Source: Candidatus Magasanikiibacteriota bacterium (GTDB lineage: Bacteria > Patescibacteriota > Patescibacteriia > Magasanikbacterales > GWA2-37-8). Taken from it: a stretch of DNA of 64,000 bases. Position numbers and translations under genes: made by a program. Where the stretch lies: assembly GCA_041666745.1 (NCBI GenBank), contig JBAYGI010000003.1, positions 12,782-76,781 on the forward strand. Reading direction: 5' to 3'. Below, piece by piece: positions 4,670 through 43,023 of the stretch (position 1 is the stretch's first letter; every line of letters begins with the position of its first letter). Under the pieces are notes generated by a model that searched no databases, was not told where the DNA came from, and saw only the letters and a list, made by a program, of their open reading frames with translations.

Positions 4670-7464
4670 ACAACTTTAATTTCTCCCCCTTGACCTATTA
4701 CCACCGTATCTCTACGTTTCAGCTTACCAGATAACAACAACTCCGCCAACTGATTTTCTACTTTTTCTTGTAAAGCGCGACGCATCGGGCGGGCGCCAAA
4801 CTCCGGATCAAAGCCAACATCAGCCAAAAACTCCATCGCCGCCGGCTCTATTTTTAATTCAATACCCTTGGCTTCCAAATCTTTGGAAACACGCTTCAAC
4901 ATCAAGCCGGCAATCTTGATAATATCCTCGCGGTTCAAAGCTTTGAACAACACAATACCATCAAAACGATTTAAAAATTCAGGACGGAAATATTCTTTTA
5001 GTTCGCCGTGCAACAATTTTTCTTTGATAACATCCGATGAAACATTGGCGCGTAATTGCTCTTGAACATAAGACGTGCCGGCGTTGGAAGTGGCAATCAA
5101 AATAACATTGGTAAAATCTACCACCCGACCAACGCTATCAGACAAACGACCGTCATCCATCACCTGTAAAAATAAATTTAAAATATCTTTGTCGGCTTTT
5201 TCCATTTCATCAAGTAACAACAAAGAAAATGGATTGCGACGAATAGCTTCTGTCAACATTCCACTACCCTTTTCACCAGCCGTACCGATCAAACGAGAAA
5301 TACTGCTTTTATCTTGGTATTCACTCATATCCAAACGCACCATACGCTCTTCACCACCAAAATATACCTCCGCGATAGTCTTGGCTAATTCGGTTTTACC
5401 AACACCGGTCGGACCCAAAAACAAAAAGTTGGCAATCGGGCGCTTGGAGGATCGAATCTCCGCTCGCGCGCGACGCAGAGCATTGGCCACCAAATCTACC
5501 GCTTCGACTTGACCGATCACTCGCTTGTGCATTTCTTCTTCGAGGTGCATCAATTTGGTACTCTCATCAGCTGAAACAGTTGTGACCGGTACACCGGTTT
5601 TTTGCGCCACTACCGCGCCCACTTCTTCACCGGTAACAAAACTATTGATACCTTTTTTACTACGAGAAAAAGAAGCCGCTTCCGTCATCAGCTCTTGCGC
5701 GCTACCTGGTAAATATGACTCATGCAAAAATCGTGCCGCCAACTGAACCGACTTGGCTACCGCGTCATAAGAAAAAAATACATTTTGTTTATACTCGACT
5801 GTCCCCACTTTGGATTCCAAAACTTGAATTGCCTGATTTTCGTCCATTTCTTTTATTTCCACTTTGGCAAATAAATTTCCAAGTGGCGAACTGACAATAT
5901 GACGAGAATATTCATCCGGAGTAGTTGTGGCAAAAGTCAAAAACCGTCCACTACCAAGATATTCATTGAGAGTGCCGGCTACATCCAAACTTCCTGTTTC
6001 TCCACCAGCTGACACACCGGTTAATTCATGAATATTGTTGATAAATAAAATAACATTACCGGACCGACCAACATCTTGCATAATACCGATCAAACGCTCC
6101 ACCGCCCCAGCCGGAGTAGTCCCTGCCAATAATTTCGGCACACTCAAACGCACCAAACGTTTGTCTCGCAAACGAACCGGCACATCATCTTCTACCATTT
6201 TTTGCGCCAAACCTTCGATGATGCTGGTTTTTCCTACACCATTATCTCCAACTAAAATAACATTTTGTCCGCCCCCTTCTACAATTCTAAAAACTTCTTC
6301 GATTTCTTTTTCACGCGCGATACAACTATCCAGATGACCAAACTGCGCCGAGATTGTCAGGTCGTCACTAAAATTATTTAAAAACGGAGTCTGTACCGCT
6401 GTCATCGCTTTGTCCATACCGATTTTTGAACGTCCAACGGCGGCTTTGCGAAATTTCATATATTGACGATACAATCTCTCTCGTATTCTCGCCCACTCCA
6501 CCACGTTTAATAATTTTTGTTTGTCAACCGCTAAATCAAATAAAATTTCTTGTAATTTTTCTGACTGTTTAATAGTAGACAACAACAATTCAGTAACACT
6601 AACATATTCTTGATGGGCGCTATACGCTTCTTCGTAGGCATTGAATAATACTTGCTGAAATTCAGGTGAAATCAATGGCATTGTAAATTTATCACGTTTC
6701 TTGTCAAAAGATGGCTCAGCCCCCAAAACATTGGCCAAAGTTTTTTGCAATGAACTGGCCGGCAGAGCTAAACGAGTAAAAATATTGGAAATGCGATTGG
6801 AAGAAAGCAATGCATAAAAAAGGTGTTCAGGCGTAGCACTACCATGACCACTTTTATCTGCCACAAAATAAGCCTCGCCCAAAACCGACAACGCCTCATC
6901 GGTAAAAGTATCAGAAATATTTATTTTTTTCTTTGATTTTATTTTTTTGGCCTGTTGCCAATCCACTACATCGATTTTTTCTTCAGCACTTTCTTTATTT
7001 CCATACTGATTGTAATGATAACGTTCGACATTGTCTTTTTTGATTCTTTCGACTATCGCCCGATACCACAAATACAACAGGATTACCGCCCCAACACAAA
7101 ACAAAACACCTTCTGTGTCTTTTAAATTGTTTATCAACAAAGCGGGGTTAAAAACAATTCCTTTGCGTAAAGTAAAATAAATCCCCCACCCCCAAGCATT
7201 GAGCCATAAAAGTATGAGGGTAAAAAAACGAACTTTATTAAAAATACGATGTGCTTTGGCCAAATTCAAATGGTAACGAGTAAGTGGATAAAACCAAAAC
7301 AACCAATGCCCACGCACAAAATGACCGGCAGACATACCGCGACATTCTTTACATTTGGAAAAACCAACAAAACCGGTCGCTTTACAAACCGGACAAGATA
7401 ACAGAGATACGGATTCGGATTTCTCAAATAACATACTATTTTGAAAACGACATAATAAAACCAC
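4666..7464 (-). CDS. ClpB/ClpC-like double AAA+ ATPase with N-terminal zinc ribbon and transmembrane segment
   Basis: 932 aa; C-x2-C-x12-C-x2-C ribbon then hydrophobic helices; Clp_N-like repeat; D1 Walker A GDNGVGKTS and D2 GPTGVGKTELAK; no IGF/L ClpP loop recognised; no obvious M-domain. Confidence 0.8.
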   Translation of the reverse strand: MVLLCRFQNSMLFEKSESVSLLSCPVCKATGFVGFSKCKECRGMSAGHFVRGHWLFWFYPLTRYHLNLAKAHRIFNKVRFFTLILLWLNAWGWGIYFTLRKGIVFNPALLINNLKDTEGVLFCVGAVILLYLWYRAIVERIKKDNVERYHYNQYGNKESAEEKIDVVDWQQAKKIKSKKKINISDTFTDEALSVLGEAYFVADKSGHGSATPEHLFYALLSSNRISNIFTRLALPASSLQKTLANVLGAEPSFDKKRDKFTMPLISPEFQQVLFNAYEEAYSAHQEYVSVTELLLSTIKQSEKLQEILFDLAVDKQKLLNVVEWARIRERLYRQYMKFRKAAVGRSKIGMDKAMTAVQTPFLNNFSDDLTISAQFGHLDSCIAREKEIEEVFRIVEGGGQNVILVGDNGVGKTSIIEGLAQKMVEDDVPVRLRDKRLVRLSVPKLLAGTTPAGAVERLIGIMQDVGRSGNVILFINNIHELTGVSAGGETGSLDVAGTLNEYLGSGRFLTFATTTPDEYSRHIVSSPLGNLFAKVEIKEMDENQAIQVLESKVGTVEYKQNVFFSYDAVAKSVQLAARFLHESYLPGSAQELMTEAASFSRSKKGINSFVTGEEVGAVVAQKTGVPVTTVSADESTKLMHLEEEMHKRVIGQVEAVDLVANALRRARAEIRSSKRPIANFLFLGPTGVGKTELAKTIAEVYFGGEERMVRLDMSEYQDKSSISRLIGTAGEKGSGMLTEAIRRNPFSLLLLDEMEKADKDILNLFLQVMDDGRLSDSVGRVVDFTNVILIATSNAGTSYVQEQLRANVSSDVIKEKLLHGELKEYFRPEFLNRFDGIVLFKALNREDIIKIAGLMLKRVSKDLEAKGIELKIEPAAMEFLADVGFDPEFGARPMRRALQEKVENQLAELLLSGKLKRRDTVVIGQGGEIKVV

Positions 7465-7876: not shown

Positions 7877-8260
7877 CTATTTTGCCATGGCCACTGCCCC
7901 ATTGGTAGGATTGTAACGTTGAAAATCTTCAACGGCCACCAAATTCATACCTTGTAAACGTTTTTCAATATTATTCATTGAACCGGCATCAGCGATTTTG
8001 ATCTGCAAACCCTGCAAATCCGCGTTCATTTCACTAATCTGGTTTTCCAATGCATGAGCTTCATAACCACAAGTAGCCGCTGAATTTACTCGAACCATAT
8101 AGGCCACCGACATGATTACCACCACTCCTAGCAAACTAGCACGCATGGCTTTGCCACTAACCCACTCCGGCACAGTAATAGTACACAAGGCAGAAATAAA
8201 ATTGTGATAGTGGGCCTGAAATTGACGTTTATATGACATATAAAATTTAAAGTTTTTCAA
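7877..8260 (-). CDS. FtsL-like bitopic cell division protein
   Basis: 127 aa; single TM (LLGVVVIMSVAYMV) then coiled-coil; directly downstream of rsmH as in dcw clusters. Confidence 0.45.
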   Translation of the reverse strand: MKNFKFYMSYKRQFQAHYHNFISALCTITVPEWVSGKAMRASLLGVVVIMSVAYMVRVNSAATCGYEAHALENQISEMNADLQGLQIKIADAGSMNNIEKRLQGMNLVAVEDFQRYNPTNGAVAMAK

Positions 8261-9152
8261 TTATTCTTAATTTGGCACTACGACTGCTAGGATTGTTTTC
8301 GACTTCTTCCTCGCTAGCTATAATGGGTTTTTTGTTAATAATTTTTAATGTTTTATTTTGATTTTTTACAAAAAATTGTTTTACTATTCTATCTTCCAAA
8401 GAATGAAAGGTGATCACTGCCAAACGTCCGCCAACAGATAAACTTTCGATTGCTTGCGGTAAAACCTGTCGTATCACTTCCAATTCTGAATTGACCGCGA
8501 TGCGTAACGCTTGAAACACTTTGGTCGCCGGATGAATACCACCAACCCAAGGAATTTCTTTTTCAGTTTTTAATTTACGACGATAAACTCCCAAAATAAT
8601 TTCTACCAATGGCGCGGTATGTTCAATTTTATTTACCGCTCGTGATCCAACAATTTCTTTGGCAATTTCTCGACTTAATTTTTCCTCCCCATAAAAACGC
8701 AATATTTTTTCTAATTCGGCTTCACTGTATTGGTTGATAACATCCGCCGCACTCTCACCCGACACACCGTTGTAGCGCATATCTAGCGGTTCATCGCCTT
8801 CAAAACTGAATCCCCGACTACGTTCTTTGAACTGTGGTGTTGACCATCCCAAATCTATCAAAATTGCATCGGCATTTTCAAAATTATTTGCTTTGATTAT
8901 TTCTTTTAAATTTACAAAGTTGTCTCGAACAAAAATTACCTGACTACCAAAATTATATAAATTTCTTTTGGCTCTAAATAGTGATTCCGGATCAGCATCA
9001 ATGCCCAGTAATTTTCCTTTTGGACCGATTTTTTCCAAAATCACTTCGCTGTGCCCTGCATCACCCAAAGTACAATCGATCACTTTCGCGCCTGCTTTTA
9101 GTTGTAAAGAATCCACTACCTCCCTTAACAAAACCGGTACATGCCTAGACAT
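8247..9152 (-). CDS. rsmH: 16S rRNA (cytosine1402-N4)-methyltransferase RsmH
   Basis: 301 aa; MSRHVPVLLREVVD N-terminus and SAM-binding motifs of RsmH/MraW. Confidence 0.9.
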   Translation of the reverse strand: MSRHVPVLLREVVDSLQLKAGAKVIDCTLGDAGHSEVILEKIGPKGKLLGIDADPESLFRAKRNLYNFGSQVIFVRDNFVNLKEIIKANNFENADAILIDLGWSTPQFKERSRGFSFEGDEPLDMRYNGVSGESAADVINQYSEAELEKILRFYGEEKLSREIAKEIVGSRAVNKIEHTAPLVEIILGVYRRKLKTEKEIPWVGGIHPATKVFQALRIAVNSELEVIRQVLPQAIESLSVGGRLAVITFHSLEDRIVKQFFVKNQNKTLKIINKKPIIASEEEVENNPSSRSAKLRIIEKL

Positions 9153-9169: not shown

Positions 9170-9619
9170 TTAAACTCCCAGCTCGGCCATCTTTTCAGCG
9201 ATTTCATTACTGTTGGTTTCAGTGGTTGTCTTGTAAGCTTTCCATTTGGCTTCATCCCAAATTTCCGCGCGATTATACAAACCAGCCAAAACAACATTTT
9301 TCTTTAAACCGGCAAACTCTCGTAAATATTCCGGTAAAACTACGCGTCCTTGCTTGTCGATTTCCACTTCCATCGCACCAGCCAACATCAAACGAGAAAA
9401 AGCACGACTGTTGGATTGACTAAACGGTAGAGTGGCCAATTTTTCGGCCAATTTTTCCCATTCGGTTTTGGTGTAGAGGAATAAACAGTTGTCTAATCCG
9501 CGTGTGACTACCGCACCCTTGGACAAATCACGACGAAACTTGACTGGAATAGCCAAACGTCCCTTATCGTCTAAGTTGTGCGCGTATTCACCGATAAACA
9601 TAATTTGTAAATTCACCAC
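9170..9619 (-). CDS. mraZ: Transcriptional regulator MraZ
   Basis: 149 aa; duplicated DxxxR-containing MraZ motif (MFIGEYAHNLDDKGRLAIP). Confidence 0.9.
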   Translation of the reverse strand: MVNLQIMFIGEYAHNLDDKGRLAIPVKFRRDLSKGAVVTRGLDNCLFLYTKTEWEKLAEKLATLPFSQSNSRAFSRLMLAGAMEVEIDKQGRVVLPEYLREFAGLKKNVVLAGLYNRAEIWDEAKWKAYKTTTETNSNEIAEKMAELGV

Positions 9620-9745
9620 TTTCCTCCACTACATTCCATTTTATACCACTTTGAAACATTGGTCAACACTTTATACCATTTTAATCTTGGCTAAGACACA
9701 ACAAAAAAACCACATAAAAAAATATGTGTGGATAACTATTTTGTA

Positions 9746-9775
9746 TTGACTTTAAAACACAGAACAAGGTAAAAT
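9746..9775 (+). promoter_or_regulatory. Candidate sigma70-type promoter (TTGACT-N18-TAAAAT) upstream of high-GC island 1
   Basis: Hexamers read directly; imperfect inverted repeat agaacaag/cactgttct overlaps the -10; region is also divergent promoter space for mraZ. Confidence 0.4.
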
Positions 9776-9824
9776 CATTTCACTGTTCTTTCGGCGATTT
9801 TTCTCGCCAACGGAGGGACACTAG

Positions 9825-10055
9825 ATGACCAACGCGCGCTTCTTTGCTAGACCAATCGAAGACATGGCCATTCATGTCGTAGCAGTGGCTGCCACCACGG
9901 TGGTCGCTCCGATTGTCGCGGCCGGCGTCTTTAGCCTAGGCGTCCAGGACGCGGCGAAGGCGATCAGCGACAAAGCCACGAAGCTCTGCCGAAAGGCGAG
10001 CGGGATGGTCATTGACATGATCCCTGATCTGCCCTACGACGACTATTGTGATTAG
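9825..10055 (+). other. High-GC (~58%) island containing a 76-codon Ala/Val-rich ORF; either a foreign small membrane peptide gene or a structured non-coding RNA
   Basis: GC composition and codon usage (gcg/gcc/ggc) unlike flanking ~33% GC DNA; GGAGGG SD 8 nt upstream of ATG; hydrophobic segment IHVVAVAATTVVAPIVAAGVF. Confidence 0.3.
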
Positions 10056-10104
10056 GTGCGATGACGACGCATTGATTGGCGTCGCCGCGCCCTCCCGCCT
10101 ATAT

Positions 10105-10150
10105 GCGCGCCGGATCCTTCAAGGACCGGCGCGCTTCCATTTTTGGTTGA
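10105..10150 (+). terminator. Strong GC hairpin plus T-run (rho-independent terminator) closing island 1
   Basis: gcgcgccgg-a-tcctt-c-aagga-c-cggcgcgc followed by ttccatttttggttgattttt. Confidence 0.55.
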
Positions 10151-10305
10151 TTTTTGTTTGGGTAGTGTGTATAATAGACGGTAATCATAACCACCTTGTG
10201 AATAAAAATTATTGAAACTATTTTGTTTTGTTTTAGTCAAATTTTTAGCAAGTTGGTTTATCAGTAGTTAGGCGACATACGATTTTTATTAAAAAACTGG
10301 AAACA

Positions 10306-10314
10306 CCCCCCCCC
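10306..10314 (+). repeat. Homopolymeric poly-C(9) tract 16 bp upstream of the 10330 start codon
   Basis: Nine consecutive C in a 33% GC genome; candidate slipped-strand phase-variation site. Confidence 0.8.
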
Positions 10315-10329
10315 TTAACCACTAGCGTT

Positions 10330-10971
10330 ATGGAAAACGAAATCCAAATCGGCCATGAGCCAAAACAAAATTGGTTATTGAAGCGAGTAAAAAAATATCA
10401 AGTTATTACTTTCACGTTTGGCTTCCTGCTCCTCAATCAACTTACAATGATTTTTGTATCTTATTTTGCCGATAAAAATTTATTTGTAAAAAATTTTGCC
10501 CTGAATATTTGGTTTTGGGCAATCGGCATACCGATAATTTACTTTCTACAATGGTTATTAGTTATTTGGGTAGCATCAAAGTTCTCGAAGGAAACATTAA
10601 AACAAAAATTTTCAAGACACCCCATAGCCACAATTATTCTTTTTATTTTGTATGTGACTAACTTACCATATAGATTATCTGAGTACGGTGGTGGCATCGT
10701 CGCTATTTTCGAAACAATAATATATTACGCATTTGTATCTTTTCTCTGGTGGCTATTGATTTGTTGGATTAGTAGTAAAATTTTTAAAAAACAGCGATTT
10801 GACTGGAGTTGGTATAAAAAAATAATTGAAAAAATTTTTGTTTTAATGCCGATTATCTACAAAATTATCCTTGGCTTAATAGTGGCGTTGGCATTATTCT
10901 TTGTCTTATTTATTTTAATAACAGTAGTTTTCAAATATTCAGGCCAAGATTTAAAAATGCTGTTTTCTTAA
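10330..10971 (+). CDS. Polytopic membrane protein (hypothetical), cassette A gene 1
   Basis: 213 aa, 5-6 predicted TM helices; no recognisable family. Confidence 0.45.
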   Translation: MENEIQIGHEPKQNWLLKRVKKYQVITFTFGFLLLNQLTMIFVSYFADKNLFVKNFALNIWFWAIGIPIIYFLQWLLVIWVASKFSKETLKQKFSRHPIATIILFILYVTNLPYRLSEYGGGIVAIFETIIYYAFVSFLWWLLICWISSKIFKKQRFDWSWYKKIIEKIFVLMPIIYKIILGLIVALALFFVLFILITVVFKYSGQDLKMLFS

Positions 10972-10988
10972 TCATTGACAAAATCACT

Positions 10989-11249
10989 ATGAGAACAATC
11001 GGCAAAATAATCGGCTACCTAATGTGGATCGGAGCAGGAATCCTAATGTTTATTTTTTGGCTCCTGGCCATGAGTAAATGGTTGGGTTTACTCGGTACAA
11101 TACTCGCTTTCGTTTTAAGTCCTGGCTTAGTTATATTTCCGATAGTATTTTGGATTGTCGAGGGGGTGTTCCCAGCTTTCTATTTCATAATTTGGGGCTT
11201 TGGTATAGTTGGGTTGATAATCGGCGGCATTTCGAGTCGCAACGATTAA
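10989..11249 (+). CDS. Small membrane protein (hypothetical), cassette A gene 2
   Basis: 86 aa, three hydrophobic helices. Confidence 0.4.
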   Translation: MRTIGKIIGYLMWIGAGILMFIFWLLAMSKWLGLLGTILAFVLSPGLVIFPIVFWIVEGVFPAFYFIIWGFGIVGLIIGGISSRND

Positions 11250-11254
11250 TAAAA

Positions 11255-11424
11255 ATCGTACATCGCCTAACAGCGTGTATCTGGTTCAACAGATTTGGCT
11301 CATTAAATTTTAAAGGGATGCCAAATCTGCCTCACTCAAATTTCGCACACACTTATTGAAAAATTTAAGGATGTGTGCGAAACTTCAGATACACGCGAAC
11401 GTTGTGCGAAATTGTGAGGCAACC
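11255..11424 (+). repeat. attC-like composite palindrome (junction cassette A/B)
   Basis: GCCTAAC-agcgtgtatctg ... cagatacacgcg-aacGTTgtgcg; nested palindromes cagatttggc/gccaaatctg and tttcgcacac/gtgtgcgaaa. Confidence 0.55.
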
Positions 11425-11452
11425 TAATAAATTTTAATTCCGCTTTTTTCTT

Positions 11453-11758
11453 ATGAAGTTCGATAAACTAGTTCGGGATAATATCCCCGATATTATAAAA
11501 AAAGATGGTAAGGAGCCGTTTACTCGTATTGCCGAAGATAAAGAGTTCGAGGAAGCTTTGACGCGCAAATTGCACGAAGAGGCCGGCGAATTTTTAGAAA
11601 ATCCAAGTGTAGAAGAGGCCGCCGATATTTTAGAGGTCTTGCATGCAATTTGCGCTCTGAAAGGTGTGGACTTACAAACTTTAGAGGAAGTTCGCCAGAA
11701 AAAAGCGGAAGAACGTGGAGGTTTCACGCAAAGGATTATTTTGGATAGAACAGAGTAA
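11453..11758 (+). CDS. MazG-like (all-alpha NTP pyrophosphohydrolase / HisE-like) nucleotide pyrophosphohydrolase, cassette B
   Basis: 101 aa; KLVRDNIPDII ... EExxEExxE ... DILEVL pattern of MazG/PRA-PH superfamily; GC ~42%, higher than flanks. Confidence 0.65.
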   Translation: MKFDKLVRDNIPDIIKKDGKEPFTRIAEDKEFEEALTRKLHEEAGEFLENPSVEEAADILEVLHAICALKGVDLQTLEEVRQKKAEERGGFTQRIILDRTE

Positions 11759-11760
11759 TA

Positions 11761-11890
11761 CCGGGGCGGTTGCCTCACAACTTCGTACAACAGCGCATAT
11801 GCGGTTACGCTACGCTCCACCCAAATTCTGATTCGCTTCGCTCAACAGAACTTCGCATGATGCGCATACGTTAGGCAACATACTGGAAAC
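11761..11890 (+). repeat. attC-like palindromic junction cassette B/C
   Basis: ggttgcctcacaacttCGTACAAC-agcgcatatgcg ... gatgcgcatac-GTTAGGCaacatactggaaacc. Confidence 0.5.
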
Positions 11891-11947
11891 CTCTCGAATA
11901 AGACTTAAAATAATTATCGTAATTTATTTATTCAACTAACTTAAAAT

Positions 11948-12202
11948 ATGGAACGAAAAGATTATCCAACACCGTTTTCAGAAGCCGAAACAAGAAGTTT
12001 TTGGAACGGGCTTAGTAAAGAACAAAGGATAGATTTTTTAAAAAAAGCTAACCATTCACTCGGCGCTTCTGAAACCGATCTTATGCCTTGCGCTGATTAT
12101 GATTGGGATTCTATGTCTGAAAATGGACTAACTACGCAACTTAAGGAACATTTACCTAAAATCGGTAGATTTTTTGAAGCCGAGCTTAAGGCGGGACAAT
12201 AA
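11948..12202 (+). CDS. Hypothetical 84-aa protein, cassette C
   Basis: ORF bracketed by ~50-bp imperfect inverted repeats (11869-11920 vs 12207-12248); no family recognised. Confidence 0.4.
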   Translation: MERKDYPTPFSEAETRSFWNGLSKEQRIDFLKKANHSLGASETDLMPCADYDWDSMSENGLTTQLKEHLPKIGRFFEAELKAGQ

Positions 12203-12206
12203 ATTA

Positions 12207-12262
12207 CGAGAATTATTTTAAGAGTCGGTTTCCAGTACATTGCCTAACAGCGTGTATACAGC
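12207..12262 (+). repeat. Right terminal inverted repeat of cassette C plus conserved GCCTAACagcgtgtat motif
   Basis: Reverse complement matches 11869-11920; 16-mer gcctaacagcgtgtat also present at 11265-11280. Confidence 0.55.
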
Positions 12263-12312
12263 ATTAAAACGATGCATACCCGCGGCGCATTCGGCGAAAT
12301 AACAATAAATTT

Positions 12313-13238: not shown

Positions 13239-13655
13239 TTAACTCAAACCTAAAATTGGTCTTATTTGTATGAAATCATTTTCTAACACTACGACTCTAT
13301 CGTCAAGTTTTCTTACATTGTGAGCATTGACCAGTGTTTCTTCATCTTTTTTCTTATACATACCAACAAACGCATCCAAAGTATTCATGATTTTTGAGAT
13401 ATCTTCCTTGTTAACCATAATGTCCATCATTTTTGAAATATCATCTTTGGTAGCCATAATATCTATGATTTTTGAGACATCTTCCTTGGTGACATCCAAA
13501 CTTTCTTTAATTCTATCCAGATGCTCGGTATGATCAGCCACTGTACGAGCTATAAGACCCAGCTGATCTTCTTGATCATCAAAACGTTTGTTGACTTCCA
13601 CAAAACTAACGTCGTGTTCTTTGAGTTTTTTGATAACTTCCTCCATATAAATCAA
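13239..13655 (-). CDS. Hypothetical protein with three tandem 12-aa repeats (KEDxSKIxDIMxx)
   Basis: 138 aa; 36-bp DNA tandem repeats at ~13370-13480. Confidence 0.45.
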   Translation of the reverse strand: MIYMEEVIKKLKEHDVSFVEVNKRFDDQEDQLGLIARTVADHTEHLDRIKESLDVTKEDVSKIIDIMATKDDISKMMDIMVNKEDISKIMNTLDAFVGMYKKKDEETLVNAHNVRKLDDRVVVLENDFIQIRPILGLS

Positions 13656-38810: not shown

Positions 38811-38814
38811 AATC

Positions 38815-38870
38815 TGACTACTCGTTAGTCCTCAATGGTTTGAGAATTAACGAGTAGGTAGTCAGATGGT
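38815..38870. repeat. Long imperfect hairpin (16-bp stem with 3-nt bulge) at left edge of high-GC island 2
   Basis: atctgactactcgtta ... taacgagtaggtagtcagat. Confidence 0.6.
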
Positions 38871-38927
38871 AAGTCCAACCCCTTGCTCGCCTCTTGGGAG
38901 AGGGGTTAGTGTGGGCCGTTGAGCGAC

Positions 38928-39509
38928 CTACAGATTGTGGCGAGCGCGGAACTTCGTGACGGCCAGAGGGATGATCCGTTCGACGTGCGCCGGAACCGTG
39001 GGATCTGGCAGGTCATCGACTGGGAACCACCCGCGCGTGTCGCTGACTTCTGGAGCGCGTTCCAAGTCGGTGAGAAACACGAAGGAGATCCCCGCGCCTC
39101 TGCCTTCGTCGCCGATCTTGTACCAGCCGAAGCCGGCGTCGCCGACGCGAACGATACTGACAGGCACCCCATATTCCCTGGAGAGTCGGAATTTTGGAGT
39201 GTTCTCATCGTCGCTTGGACGAAGAGCGGTGCCTGGCACATGCCAGTAACCGGACCAGTCGGGATCGCTATCGTCCCGCTTGATCATGAAGACCTCGACC
39301 TTCCCCGAGTCATCATTGAATCGTAGCGACACGCTTTCCCAGTACACGTTCCACGAGGACCGTGCTACCGCCTTGTACAGTTCTGTCCCCAGTGGCCTTG
39401 TCGGATCAACGCGTCGGAGCACTTCTGCCACGAACTCCCTATATTCTGCGCTTTCTGGATCGAAGTCCTTGAGCACTTCAAGGACATCGTTCAAAATTTC
39501 AGTCATCAC
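38928..39509 (-). CDS. High-GC (~58%) foreign ORF encoding a degenerate Nudix-fold-like hypothetical protein
   Basis: 193 aa; WHVPGTALRPSDDENTPKFRLSREYGV resembles a Nudix box lacking the catalytic glutamates; AGGAGTGG SD; composition unlike host. Confidence 0.5.
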   Translation of the reverse strand: MMTEILNDVLEVLKDFDPESAEYREFVAEVLRRVDPTRPLGTELYKAVARSSWNVYWESVSLRFNDDSGKVEVFMIKRDDSDPDWSGYWHVPGTALRPSDDENTPKFRLSREYGVPVSIVRVGDAGFGWYKIGDEGRGAGISFVFLTDLERAPEVSDTRGWFPVDDLPDPTVPAHVERIIPLAVTKFRARHNL

Positions 39510-39569
39510 TCCACTCCTGACGGGATTTAACCCGAGTAGTTGCCGAACCTCTGTTGATCAAAAAAGCTT

Positions 39570-39605
39570 ATAACTATAACACAAAACAGACATTCTGTCA
39601 AATTG
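39570..39605 (-). promoter_or_regulatory. Near-consensus sigma70 promoter (TTGACA-N17-TATAGT) on minus strand driving the high-GC ORF
   Basis: Reverse complement of 39570-39605 reads aatTTGACAgaatgtctgttttgtgtTATAGTtat; lies immediately 3' of the giant surface protein gene. Confidence 0.45.
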
Positions 39606-42600
39606 GCCATTGAAACCAAAGTGTCGGATCCCAAAATGTTTTAACATTCATAAAATTTCTTGAGTCCATATTATTGAGATGTAGGATTGGTAACGGATCC
39701 ACACTACCCGACAAAATACCGGTATCCAAATTCATCAAATTGGTATTATCCAGTGTCAGCTCCCCACTAAATATTTTTATTCCATTGGTGTTGGCCACAT
39801 TTGGTTTTGATCCGATATAACCAATCGAACTATTGTTTATTACTACAGTTGAATTATTTATTTCCAAAGTATTTCCAGACGGTTTACTATCCAACAACTG
39901 ACAATTTTGCATATCCAGTTTGCCGTTTTTTACTGTCACCATCCCCTGATAGGTATCGTTCCAAATCGTACCACGCCCGCCGGAGATGTTGGCGTTTTTA
40001 AAACCACCTTTACCACCATCAAAAATAATTCTACCCCAATAATTAATTATTAATGGTTGAATCGCCGAGATATTTATTGGATCATTTTCTGTTCCATTTA
40101 AATTTAAAATACCTTTTACCAAAATATTTGAATACTCCGGCATTTTAATATTGGTTCCGGCGGAGACATTTAGAGTTATGTTTGGTTCAACGGTGATATT
40201 TTGCCAAGTCATCGGAATATCTTTTTCAACAGTGAGATCAGTAGAAATCACCGCTTGGTCTATAGCGACATTATTTGCAATATTATTACTAAAATTTATT
40301 TGTGACATTTTTGGCCAAATATTTTTTACATAAACCGGACCATTGATATTTGTAAAATTATTTAAGCCAATATTTTCCAATTCCAAACTGCCGTCATAAT
40401 TTTCTATTGCCAACACACCATTTTTAAAATCCGTATTTTTAACAGTCGAAGTTGTTTTGGATAAATAAATATTTGTGTCCCCGCTATCACTGAAAATAGA
40501 ATTATTAATATTTAATCCCGCACTGACAGCCCGCACTGCTTGAGAAACAAATGGGTCATAAGTATTGGCACCCGGAGCTTTGAAAGCCTTACCGGCATAG
40601 CGCATATCCAAACCGGACAAATTGGCGGTTGAACTGGCATACAACAATAGCCCCTGCCAATCTTTGGCCAAAGCACTTCCCGATCGAGTACCGATAATAG
40701 TTTTGTACCCTTCCGATTCAAAATTTACATCTCTGCCGGATGTCATAATCACTCGACTGTCGCTGGTGCCATTTATATTCAAATTCCCTTTGATATCAAT
40801 TTTGGAATCCGCATAATAAGTTTTTATTACCACTCCCGAATCAATGTTGAAAGTTTTACCAACCGGAATTTCATAATAAGTTAAAATATACGGATAAATA
40901 CTTTTTTTCAAAGTGCGATCGGTTTCAACCTGACGACTCTTGAGAACTATCGATCCAAAATTTGATTGCTTTGGTGAACCGTTGAGTGGAAGATCATCAC
41001 CACCGCCATCTACTTTGCCTGTGAATCTCGGACCTTGGTTTGTTTGCCAATTGGTTGAATTATTTCCGGGTAAACGTGAATTTATTTTTTCCATCGAAGA
41101 ATAAGTAACGTCGGAACCGGCAAACCAAGTACTACTACAATCCACTTCATCCACGAGCTGATTGTTTCCGTCCAACAAACGCAGGCGCTCACCACTATTT
41201 TTTAATGCACCGGAATAAATAATGTCTGCCGGAATTTCATTGACTGTGCGATCGTCGGTGCGTTCAAATAAATAATAACCATTTTTGGGAATGATACGAT
41301 TGACGATTTTTCCAATACTAATTTCTTTATCTCCGATCATAAGTTTCCACCACTTGGAGGTGTTGGTGGCGGAAAATAAATTTATATCTTGATCGGTGTT
41401 GTTGTATAACTCGATAAACTCATCTTGGTCGGTGACCGAGGACGTGCCTGCCCAGGCGATTTCGTTTATTACTACGTCGGGGGCGGGTGGAACTGGATCT
41501 GGGATTTCGGGAGTGGATGTGGGGGTGGTGGAGGTTGGGGTGGTGGAGGTTGGGATTGTGGAAGTTGGGGTTGTATCTGGGATGGTTGAGGTGGGAATTT
41601 CGATAGGTGTGGTTGTGGGGGTGATTGGGGTGGTGGTGGGTATTTCTATGGTGGTAGTTGGAATGTCGATTGTGGAGGTGGGAGTTTCGATTGTGGAAGT
41701 AGCAACAGGTACGGTTGTTGTAGGAACAGGTGTTTGAATAACTACGACTGGATCAGCAACTGGGATTATGGTCGGATTGGATCCGCCACCGCCTCCACCT
41801 CCACCGGTGGAATGTTCTGGTGGTTGAATTGGAGTTGGATTATTTATTGGTGGGTTTGGTGTTGGTTGGGGTGGTGATATGACTGGTTGTGTAGTTGGAG
41901 GTGTGTTTGGTGCTGGATTTTGGTTTACTGGAGGTGTATTGTTTGGGGTATTGTCGGACACGGGATTGTTGGTATTTTCTCCGGATGTAATTTGATCATT
42001 TGGTGTTTGAGAATTGGCAGAATCATAAATATTTTCCGCTACTGAAATTATGTCTCCAACTCCAGTGTCTATCAAGCCACCTAAGCCAATTCTAAAAAAT
42101 GGCAGTTTTTCGGTTTCATTTTTTTGTACATCGGAGAGGAATAATTTTATGGTGTTGGCGCTGTAACTGACGGCTTTGGGGAGGAGGTGGGAGGCGTAGT
42201 CTTGGAGGATCACACTGTTGTTTACCATGTTTTTATCTTCTTTCCAATCAGTACCACCTATCAAATGACTTTTTATTAAATTACTATCACTATCTTTAGT
42301 CGAAGCAACATATAGATCAACTGCATTATTAAAATTATACGGATCCAATTTAGAAATTTTATGTACACTATACTTACTATTTTCAATCGTCTTGTCACTA
42401 TAAAAATTACTATTTGAATATTTAGCCGCATCATTAAAAATATCTTCTAGACTATTTTTATCAGCTACCTCACTTTTAATATTTTTACTTATTGTACTCC
42501 AATTATTTTTTACATAACTTTCATACGAGTCCGGTGGAATAGCATGAATACTGTCACGTGTATGAGCTGGCACCAACATATCAGATACCAGGTGAATATT

Positions 42601-43023
42601 GTGACCTAATTCTTTAAAAGCCAACTCTTTGTTGCCTTTACGAAAATCATTTATTGCTCTTTGCCAACTATTATCACCCAACGAAAAAGCGGTTTGTTTG
42701 TCATAATCTTTTGCCCAAACTTTGGCGGAATCATTTTGTTTTCCAAAAAATAATCCGCGATTGTATATCGGATCATAAAAATGATTTAACCATCTGGTCG
42801 GTTGATCCTCCTCTACTGTGCCGGTTTTGATCCAACCAAGTTGTTCAACTGAAATTTTTTGACTGTTGTTTTGATTGTATTGTTTCACGGCCAAATCGGC
42901 AATTCCGGGATGGGCAACGTTGGAATCATAACAAAAAACTTGGCGCACGAACGCCAAGTTTAAAAAAATAACAAAAATAATAAAAACAAATAATTGAAAA
43001 CACTTATCCCCTCCCTTTTTCAT
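39598..43023 (-). CDS. Giant secreted multidomain protein: zinc-dependent phospholipase C / P1-nuclease-like domain, Pro/Thr-rich linker, Gly9 run, lamin-tail domain, right-handed beta-helix repeats
   Basis: 1141 aa; signal peptide; HFYDP and HNIHLVSDMLVPAH (zinc PLC/S1-P1 motifs); VVINEIAWAGTS...DEFIELYN (LTD); NxxG-type beta-helix repeats C-terminally. Confidence 0.75.
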   Translation of the reverse strand: MKKGGDKCFQLFVFIIFVIFLNLAFVRQVFCYDSNVAHPGIADLAVKQYNQNNSQKISVEQLGWIKTGTVEEDQPTRWLNHFYDPIYNRGLFFGKQNDSAKVWAKDYDKQTAFSLGDNSWQRAINDFRKGNKELAFKELGHNIHLVSDMLVPAHTRDSIHAIPPDSYESYVKNNWSTISKNIKSEVADKNSLEDIFNDAAKYSNSNFYSDKTIENSKYSVHKISKLDPYNFNNAVDLYVASTKDSDSNLIKSHLIGGTDWKEDKNMVNNSVILQDYASHLLPKAVSYSANTIKLFLSDVQKNETEKLPFFRIGLGGLIDTGVGDIISVAENIYDSANSQTPNDQITSGENTNNPVSDNTPNNTPPVNQNPAPNTPPTTQPVISPPQPTPNPPINNPTPIQPPEHSTGGGGGGGGSNPTIIPVADPVVVIQTPVPTTTVPVATSTIETPTSTIDIPTTTIEIPTTTPITPTTTPIEIPTSTIPDTTPTSTIPTSTTPTSTTPTSTPEIPDPVPPAPDVVINEIAWAGTSSVTDQDEFIELYNNTDQDINLFSATNTSKWWKLMIGDKEISIGKIVNRIIPKNGYYLFERTDDRTVNEIPADIIYSGALKNSGERLRLLDGNNQLVDEVDCSSTWFAGSDVTYSSMEKINSRLPGNNSTNWQTNQGPRFTGKVDGGGDDLPLNGSPKQSNFGSIVLKSRQVETDRTLKKSIYPYILTYYEIPVGKTFNIDSGVVIKTYYADSKIDIKGNLNINGTSDSRVIMTSGRDVNFESEGYKTIIGTRSGSALAKDWQGLLLYASSTANLSGLDMRYAGKAFKAPGANTYDPFVSQAVRAVSAGLNINNSIFSDSGDTNIYLSKTTSTVKNTDFKNGVLAIENYDGSLELENIGLNNFTNINGPVYVKNIWPKMSQINFSNNIANNVAIDQAVISTDLTVEKDIPMTWQNITVEPNITLNVSAGTNIKMPEYSNILVKGILNLNGTENDPINISAIQPLIINYWGRIIFDGGKGGFKNANISGGRGTIWNDTYQGMVTVKNGKLDMQNCQLLDSKPSGNTLEINNSTVVINNSSIGYIGSKPNVANTNGIKIFSGELTLDNTNLMNLDTGILSGSVDPLPILHLNNMDSRNFMNVKTFWDPTLWFQWPI
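41400..41960. repeat. Coding low-complexity tandem repeats (Pro/Thr/Ile-rich linker)
   Basis: Repeated gtggaggttgggg-type units on the + strand (complement encodes PTTT/IPTST repeats). Confidence 0.7.

Follow-up and report, generated by a model that had tools for sequence, protein, structure and literature searches.

Whether a short GC-rich island in an AT-rich genome represents a structured RNA gene, a freshly imported piece of DNA, or a protein-coding gene was the question raised by a locus next to mraZ in a genome of Candidatus Magasanikiibacteriota (assembly GCA_041666745.1, contig JBAYGI010000003.1). The whole stretch of DNA analyzed (hereafter the window) was 64,000 nt in length, and the island lay between mraZ and an array of integron-type cassettes. 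A preliminary description, made from the nucleotide letters alone, had recognized here a self-contained promoter–Shine-Dalgarno (SD)–open reading frame (ORF)–terminator unit of foreign composition, and it had held a structured noncoding RNA to be as plausible as a small membrane or toxin-like peptide. The analysis reported below indicates that the island is probably an autonomous single-gene transcription unit for a predicted 76-residue membrane protein without known relatives.

Composition and organization of the GC-rich unit

GC content was taken in 150-bp sampling windows over the whole 64 kb. The region 9775 to 10171 had a mean GC content of 56% and a peak of 64%, the latter about 3.9 standard deviations above the mean of the window (36.7%; standard deviation, 7.0%), and only one other comparable island was present in the 64 kb, at 38821 to 39489. 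The background of ~33% GC that had been given for the surroundings was slightly low for the window, and the direct flanks of the island had 24% to 30% GC. The unit as a whole had 58% GC, its 3′ untranslated region (UTR) had 62%, and the GC content at third codon positions (GC3) of its ORF was 0.71 versus 0.29 to 0.44 in the genes of the genome. Codon usage and k-mer composition were likewise atypical: the codon adaptation index-like value of the ORF was 0.489 versus 0.715 ± 0.025 in 43 host ORFs (8.9 standard deviations lower), and the tetranucleotide distance of the island from the window gave z = 4.4 (rank 29 of 2545 sampling windows).

The unit was on the plus strand, between the conserved mraZ control region and a block composed of DUF5652 and RNase-J-like genes, and all parts named in the preliminary description were recovered in place. 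It displayed the following modular organization: (i) a sigma-70-like promoter TTGACT (9746–9751)–18-nt spacer–TAAAAT (9770–9775) with 10 of 12 consensus matches, situated in AT-rich DNA just past the end of a block conserved in sister genomes (~9742) and 50 nt upstream of the ORF, with a predicted transcription start near 9782; (ii) a 5′-UTR stem-loop at 9784 to 9820 (-16 kcal/mol; z = -2.4; 1 of 200 shuffles folded as well), in which an inner stem GGCGA/TCGCC was accompanied by an outer stem pairing UGUUCUUUC with the SD region GGAGGGACA, three G-U pairs included; (iii) the SD GGAGGG at 9812 to 9817, 7 nt before the ATG at 9825; (iv) the ORF at 9825 to 10055, composed of 76 codons plus TAG; (v) 3′-UTR hairpin 1 at 10055 to 10091 (ATTGATTG), with an 8-nt loop; (vi) a C-rich spacer CCCTCCCGCCTAT at 10092 to 10104; and (vii) an intrinsic-terminator-like element at 10105 to 10146, made up of the GC hairpin GCGCGCCGG–A–TCCT...AGGA–CCGGCGCGC (10105–10134) and the tail TTCCATTTTTGG. 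The placement given in the preliminary description needed correction: the unit was not downstream of the mraZ promoter region but divergent from mraZ, on the far side of its promoter. The stem of the GC hairpin measured 9+4 bp with one bulge. This hairpin had a folding energy of -27.2 kcal/mol (z = -4.0; whole 3′-UTR fold, z = -4.2), and a simple terminator scanner made no call at 10105 to 10134 because of the bulge in the stem.

The predicted protein had polar residues 1–14, a hydrophobic helix at about residues 15–40, and a tail (residues 41–76) that was amphipathic and then acidic, with two Cys. Its Kyte-Doolittle 19-residue maximum was 2.32 (residues 18–36), and an AlphaFold2 (AF2) model computed without an alignment had helices at residues 8–37 and 40–63. 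A tryptic peptide of the ORF product would be ASGMVIDMIPDLPYDDYCD.

Coding potential of the ORF

The GC content of the ORF at codon positions 1, 2, and 3 was 0.60, 0.43, and 0.71, respectively (chi-square p = 0.0015), and G made up a fraction of 0.45 at first and of 0.14 at second codon positions. When the GC-rich segment was shuffled 3000 times with its dinucleotide composition preserved, 599 shuffles (20%) had an ATG-initiated ORF of at least 76 codons, bearing out the earlier caution that an ORF alone is weak evidence in GC-rich DNA. The accompanying features were far rarer: among these 599 shuffles, a transmembrane-grade segment was seen in 1 and an SD in 33, and no shuffle reached the codon periodicity of the real ORF or combined all three. 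Because periodicity, SD, and transmembrane-grade segment occurred jointly in 0 of the 3000 shuffles and neither Rfam nor ARAGORN gave a match (see below), we conclude that the unit is a putative protein-coding gene with structured untranslated ends and not a structured RNA; the even balance between RNA and peptide in the preliminary description did not hold.

Homologous 3′ ends and different ORFs in sister genomes

With MraZ as the anchor, 160 loci (L001 to L160) were collected from Magasanikbacteria genomes and metagenomes. An identically organized unit, occupying the equivalent site and oriented as in the window, was found in two of them, L004 (CAZXEV010000012) and L003 (JAVHSM010000041); compared to the window, their MraZ proteins were 93% to 94% identical and their mraZ–rsmH DNA was 78% to 80% identical. 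The layout in L003 and L004 comprised an AT-rich promoter region, a short hairpin just 5′ of the SD, the SD, a small ORF for a predicted membrane protein, a hairpin with an 8-nt loop, a C-rich spacer, and a GC hairpin ending GCGCCGCCCC..GGGCGGCGC–TT(C/T)CATTT. The promoter and 5′-hairpin part of this layout, read from the sequence only, appears to be shared by all three, and an SD-occluding pairing was not seen in L003 or L004.

The 3′ UTRs and the ORFs of the three units gave different pictures. Aligned with one another, the three 3′ UTRs gave a consensus of two hairpins, and 6 of its 19 pairs were maintained through changes on both sides; hairpin 1 retained its pairing in L003 and L004 with different stem letters, and the C-rich spacers were likewise placed. 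A covariance model (R2) whose only sources were L003 and L004 matched the window at 10052 to 10148 on the plus strand with 33.3 bits and an E value of 1.7e-8 (rough calibration), and this was its only match below E = 0.5 in the 64 kb on both strands. It is decisive here that a model built without the window found this element, and the three 3′ UTRs are, as judged by covariance modeling, demonstrably homologous. A search of the 160 sister loci with another covariance model of the 3′ element (R1) revealed no additional copies. The ORFs of L004 (67 aa; codon periodicity p = 0.0004) and L003 (72 aa) had their predicted transmembrane segments placed differently from that of the window ORF, and the three ORFs could not be aligned as DNA (p = 0.3 to 0.6 versus shuffles). 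What the window shared with its sisters was the 3′ UTR and the architecture, and not the coding part. Since the ORFs were unalignable but the 3′ ends were homologous, the coding part has been replaced, rearranged, or diversified much faster than the untranslated ends.

In a neighbor-joining tree of mraZ–rsmH the three carriers formed no clade, and the unit was absent from L083 (the sister of L004), L001, L002, L062, and L082; its distribution was thus patchy, by loss, replacement, or exchange.

Two side observations concerned these loci. The window and L004 proteins showed a weak, order-permuted likeness (P10-E12-M14 at the N terminus plus a "DAA..K" amphipathic stretch; p ~0.01, uncorrected), which is taken as a hint and not relied on. 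In L003, a run of N at ~5330 to 5430 directly followed the island terminator and made the right junction unreadable; a MazG-like gene came next, as in L002.

Variable region upstream of mraZ

Synteny among the sister loci was conserved to ~9742 on one side and resumed at ~13655 with DUF5652 and the RNase-J-like gene. The distance between these edges ranged from 344 bp (L062) and 410 bp (L004) to 3.9 kb (window), the contents of the stretch differed each time, and none of the window genes within it was found in the other 160 loci. A GC island was present within 1 kb upstream of mraZ in 25 of 127 loci versus 41 of 960 control segments (Fisher p = 1e-8; ~five-fold enrichment); a few contigs shared by the two collections are included in these counts. 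In many of the islands there were GC3-rich ORFs (GC3 0.76–0.84) that were mutually unrelated and had no Pfam domain, and many of the ORFs in this region had transmembrane or lipoprotein-like N termini. The spot upstream of mraZ is a class-wide hypervariable hot spot.

The left side of the unit was occupied by mraZ (9170–9619) and rsmH (8247–9152), both on the minus strand and with more genes further downstream; the mraZ promoter TTGACC–17 nt–TAAAAT (9666–9638, minus strand) was directed away from the unit. A hairpin CCACAT..ATGTGG at 9710 to 9735, overlapping a perfect DnaA-box sequence TGTGGATAA (9727–9735) ~100 nt upstream of mraZ, marked the exact edge of conserved synteny and was kept together with the box in all close relatives (L001 to L004, L062, and L081 to L090). 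Read on the minus strand, it was followed by a T-run and so resembles a terminator that would shield the mraZ promoter. An origin of replication at 9727 to 9735 was considered and rejected: there was one perfect DnaA box, and neither a cluster of boxes nor a skew switch accompanied it. At the right edge of the variable region, a 138-aa ORF (13239–13655, minus strand) contained three tandem 39-nt repeats (13376–13493; 75% to 83% identical), and relatives of this ORF (~41% identity) were present in L038, L063, and L112.

Alternative explanations

Several findings weigh against the reading of the unit as a membrane protein gene. The AF2 model was of low confidence (predicted local distance difference test score, 62). 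NCBI annotates a 63-aa form starting from M14 (WCT11_01940), a start other than that of the 76-aa ORF. No homologue of the protein was found, so purifying selection is not measurable. The periodicity of the L003 ORF was weak (p = 0.07), and, with only three genomes carrying the UTR scaffold, the covariation support was thin. The conservation between species resided in the 3′ UTR and not in the ORF, as would be expected if the RNA end were functional. The contigs common to both collections in the hot-spot counts also belong here.

Recent horizontal acquisition from a high-GC bacterium is possible but unlikely; under it, the unit would be foreign DNA that had arrived with its own terminator and not yet drifted to the host composition. 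The base composition and codon usage described above differed from those of the host as such an import would, the presence of the unit among close relatives was patchy, and bacteria of the candidate phyla radiation (CPR) are known to exchange genes (PMC12455944). A source or relative was sought in a protein space of ~15 billion proteins in total and in nucleotide collections. A word-indexed search of 5.8 billion protein clusters returned the ORF itself only, the sole database match being the hypothetical protein WCT11_01940 on a 145-kb contig of a Candidatus Magasanikbacteria metagenome-assembled genome (MAG). Exhaustive HMMER against 1.84 billion representatives gave no true relative; its three non-self matches were rejected, being long repetitive proteins whose scores were summed low-complexity repeats. 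There was no family in Pfam, PHROGs, or NCBIfam, no relative in an exact-protein contig look-up, and none in tblastn-confirmed scans of 185,579 species genomes, IMG/VR, and JGI metagenomes. Searches with blastn against plasmids (PLSDB) and phages (INPHARED) gave chance fragments, the phage matches covering 7% to 13% of the query with E values of at least 0.1, and a viral collection scanned with terminator 16-mers and checked with model R1 gave chance matches only. The 67-aa ORF of L004 had no homologue either. The protein is thus an orphan, and a high-GC donor is unproven. Moreover, the 3′ UTR was homologous in sisters whose core genes were only 75% to 80% identical, so that the unit cannot be recent in all its parts. 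Of the preliminary description, the atypical composition of the unit is upheld; its recent import is unproven.

A further point against import came from the second GC island of the window (38811–39560; 58% GC), whose ORF (38928–39509, minus strand) encoded a 193-aa protein with a weak NUDIX match and was located between rpmA and the gene of a 1141-aa putative surface protein. Homologues of this ORF were 53% to 61% identical; the four that could be placed (L161, L164, L166, and L167) were all in contigs of ~40% to 44% GC, one of them labelled Patescibacteria, and in each contig the gene was itself a GC island (55% to 64% GC; GC3 up to 0.91). A 3′ hairpin ACTCGTTA...TAACGAGT was common to the window and L161, with different gene neighbors. 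This family being GC-rich across diverged AT-rich genomes, a GC spike here is by itself no sign of a fresh import from a high-GC genome. Applied to the unit next to mraZ, this reasoning is by analogy, with backing from the 3′ UTR that the unit shares with its sisters. A 17-mer of the second island found in 29 viral contigs was discarded as a lead: all of them held one unrelated sequence, near-identical among the contigs. Close by, at 41390 to 41920 inside the ORF 39598 to 43023 (minus strand), G-rich plus-strand repeats of 15 to 21 nt encoded the Pro/Thr-rich repeats of the 1141-aa protein, and they account for the GC peak at 41390 to 41658.

A generalization from both islands is speculative and distinctly unlikely: Patescibacteria would carry an undescribed class of persistently GC-rich, self-contained single-gene modules that have conserved structured ends and swapped or diversified small membrane or secreted ORFs and gather at hot spots like that upstream of mraZ, their GC content being kept by recombination-linked biased gene conversion or by a CPR-shared GC-rich mobile pool and not representing a fading import. 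The unit next to mraZ (with its scaffold shared by L003 and L004) and the second island (with GC3 up to 0.91) would be examples of this class.

A module resembling type I toxin-antitoxin systems, in which a membrane-damaging toxin would be held back in translation by the SD-occluding 5′ hairpin and an unseen antisense RNA, is improbable. Similar traits are found in hok/sok, tisB/istR, and aapA/isoA, and the unit had many of them: a small single-pass hydrophobic product (Kyte-Doolittle maximum, 2.32), an SD partly paired in the 5′ stem, stable 3′ stem-loops, and an intergenic hot-spot location with fast evolution and patchy distribution. Its 76 aa are at the long end, exceeding most type I toxins. 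A consensus scan of the minus strand in and next to the island, together with inspection of the sequence, revealed no convincing promoter, antisense or divergent, from which an antitoxin RNA could be made; neither a toxin family (Pfam, NCBIfam, and PHROGs) nor an Rfam antitoxin RNA was matched, and the SD-occluding pairing was confined to the window among the three units.

A functional RNA product has an equally small probability, in either of two forms: (i) the whole 375-nt island as a noncoding RNA with a fortuitous ORF or (ii) the two-hairpin 3′ end as a 3′-UTR-derived small RNA or stability element. On either strand, the whole island formed a more stable fold than its shuffles did (z = -3.1 and -3.9), most of this excess stemming from the UTR hairpins; conservation across species was limited to the 3′ UTR, in which hairpin 1 had undergone compensatory changes; and ORFs of such length were common among the shuffles. 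However, the joint occurrence of periodicity, well-spaced SD, and transmembrane-grade segment was never reproduced by shuffling, the different ORFs of L004 and, weakly, L003 were also periodic, and an SD would be superfluous for a fully noncoding RNA. Rfam gave no match at the gathering score in the whole 64 kb, and at E values up to 10 on 9650 to 10350 it gave noise only (17 to 19 bits versus family gathering scores of 37 to 141); ARAGORN detected no tRNA or tmRNA. Rfam matches on 12 sister loci were limited to two tRNAs, and those on the L065 island were terminator-driven noise.

The unit adjoined a cassette array with integron-type sites from 10267 onward, as had been noted initially. The array (10267–12310) was composed of three cassettes, carrying ORFs of 213 and 86 aa, a 101-aa MazG/PRA-PH-like ORF, and an 84-aa ORF, respectively. 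Its sites were (i) a core site GTTAGGC at 10267, the first of the array and 117 nt past the island; (ii) GCCTAAC...GTTGTGC at 11265 to 11407, with a strong single-strand DNA fold (z = -7.1), the first true attC-like site; (iii) ...ACAAC...GTTAGGC at 11785 to 11876; and (iv) GCCTAAC at 12242, with a degenerate R′ partner. Canonical attC pairing is bounded by the R boxes; here, each cassette started with 22 to 26 nt (cassette 3, up to ~59 nt) complementary to the sequence just 5′ of the R″ box in its own site, so that the stem was extended beyond the R boxes. The array was not found in the 160 sister loci, and no integrase for it was present among the ORFs scanned, a part of the 62 in the window. 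A promoter-like TTGATT–17 nt–TATAAT at 10147 to 10175 (10 of 12 matches) came right after the island terminator and was directed into the array; it could act as the integron promoter Pc for the otherwise promoterless array. A run of nine C at 10306 to 10314, 16 nt upstream of the ATG (10330) of the first cassette ORF, could serve phase variation by strand slippage or be a homopolymer whose assembled length is uncertain.

The short distance to the first core site, the succession of three cassettes with GCCTAAC/GTTRRRY sites, and the second promoter would suit the island being itself a part of this array, be it an initial cassette whose attC has degenerated or what is left of a platform (attI, Pc, or intI), but this is very improbable. 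No RYYYAAC...GTTRRRY pair was found around the island, and 10150 to 10290 folded unlike attC (z = -1.3); there was no integrase fragment on either strand and no recombinase domain in the neighboring ORFs tested. The missing boxes, the unit's own promoter, which promoterless cassettes do not have, and the homologous array-free units of L003 and L004 largely refute both versions.

An assembly chimera or contaminant join is extremely improbable: composition switched abruptly at both edges and the source was a MAG, but AT-rich Magasanikbacteria sequence in conserved synteny lay on both sides, the 3′-UTR element recurred at the same locus in two independently assembled MAGs of other projects, and a 400-bp insert returning to the same genome is unlike chimeras.

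Proposed function and comparison with known systems

For the single-gene transcription unit, the following mode of expression is proposed. The sigma-70-type promoter at 9746 to 9775 would start an mRNA of ~360 nt, on which the 5′ stem-loop would partly cover the GGAGGG and may damp translation or shield the 5′ end. The translated protein would insert into the membrane by its single helix (residues ~15–40) and expose an amphipathic, acidic tail. The two 3′ stem-loops would stabilize and end the RNA, the second being a putative intrinsic terminator that would insulate the downstream cassette array. A toxin-like membrane-active peptide and a surface or host-interaction factor would both be in keeping with a small, fast-evolving protein of predicted membrane location that is encoded in a hot spot. 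As a best guess at its role, this small protein may act on membranes or at the surface and serve in competition or in interaction with a host.

By itself, the gene would add one more hypothetical small membrane protein. Its wider bearing would be twofold. First, it serves as a warning that a GC spike in a CPR genome alone proves neither a structured RNA nor an import from a high-GC organism. Second, the mraZ-upstream spot is a reproducible home of fast-changing, mostly membrane or secreted small proteins in Magasanikbacteria, a kind of gene expected to mediate attachment, competition, or phage defence in these unculturable episymbionts. The pattern of conserved ends and swapped ORFs, if general, would point to a way of exchanging genes that is as yet undescribed in these bacteria. 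What deserves systematic study is the recurrence, in these genomes, of single-gene modules whose high GC content apparently persists.

The unit was finally compared with four known systems. Type I toxin genes (hok, ldr, tisB, fst, and aapA) resembled it in the small hydrophobic single-pass protein, the partly paired SD, the stable 3′ stem-loops, the fast evolution, and the intergenic place, but the unit differed in having no antitoxin RNA found, no family match, and a greater length of 76 aa. Integron cassettes had in common with it a single small ORF, an odd composition, a variable array-like region, and a conserved structured 3′ element with variable coding content; unlike them, the unit had its own promoter and 3′ hairpins without RYYYAAC/GTTRRRY boxes, and its sister units stood alone. 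Phage morons, in the concept of Hendrix and Juhala, are autonomous promoter–gene–terminator modules of atypical composition inserted between genes. The unit corresponded to them as one gene of odd base composition with its own promoter and strong terminator between unrelated genes, patchy among relatives, and morons often encode small membrane or surface proteins. It departed from them in two respects: (i) it resided in a chromosomal hot spot by the cell-division cluster, its neighbors being dcw genes, cassettes, an HD-domain protein, and DUF5652, with no phage gene or integrase in the neighboring ORFs tested and no PHROGs match, and (ii) its untranslated ends, but not its ORF, were conserved between species. 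Hypervariable genomic islets matched the spot in having fixed edges (~9742 and ~13655), species-specific contents (0.3 to 3.9 kb), and many membrane or secreted products; the mraZ spot differed in its enrichment for single GC-rich genes in AT-rich genomes, which to our knowledge is not a described property of genomic islets. Overall, the unit is not a known RNA, an integron cassette, or an artifact but a moron-like or islet gene.

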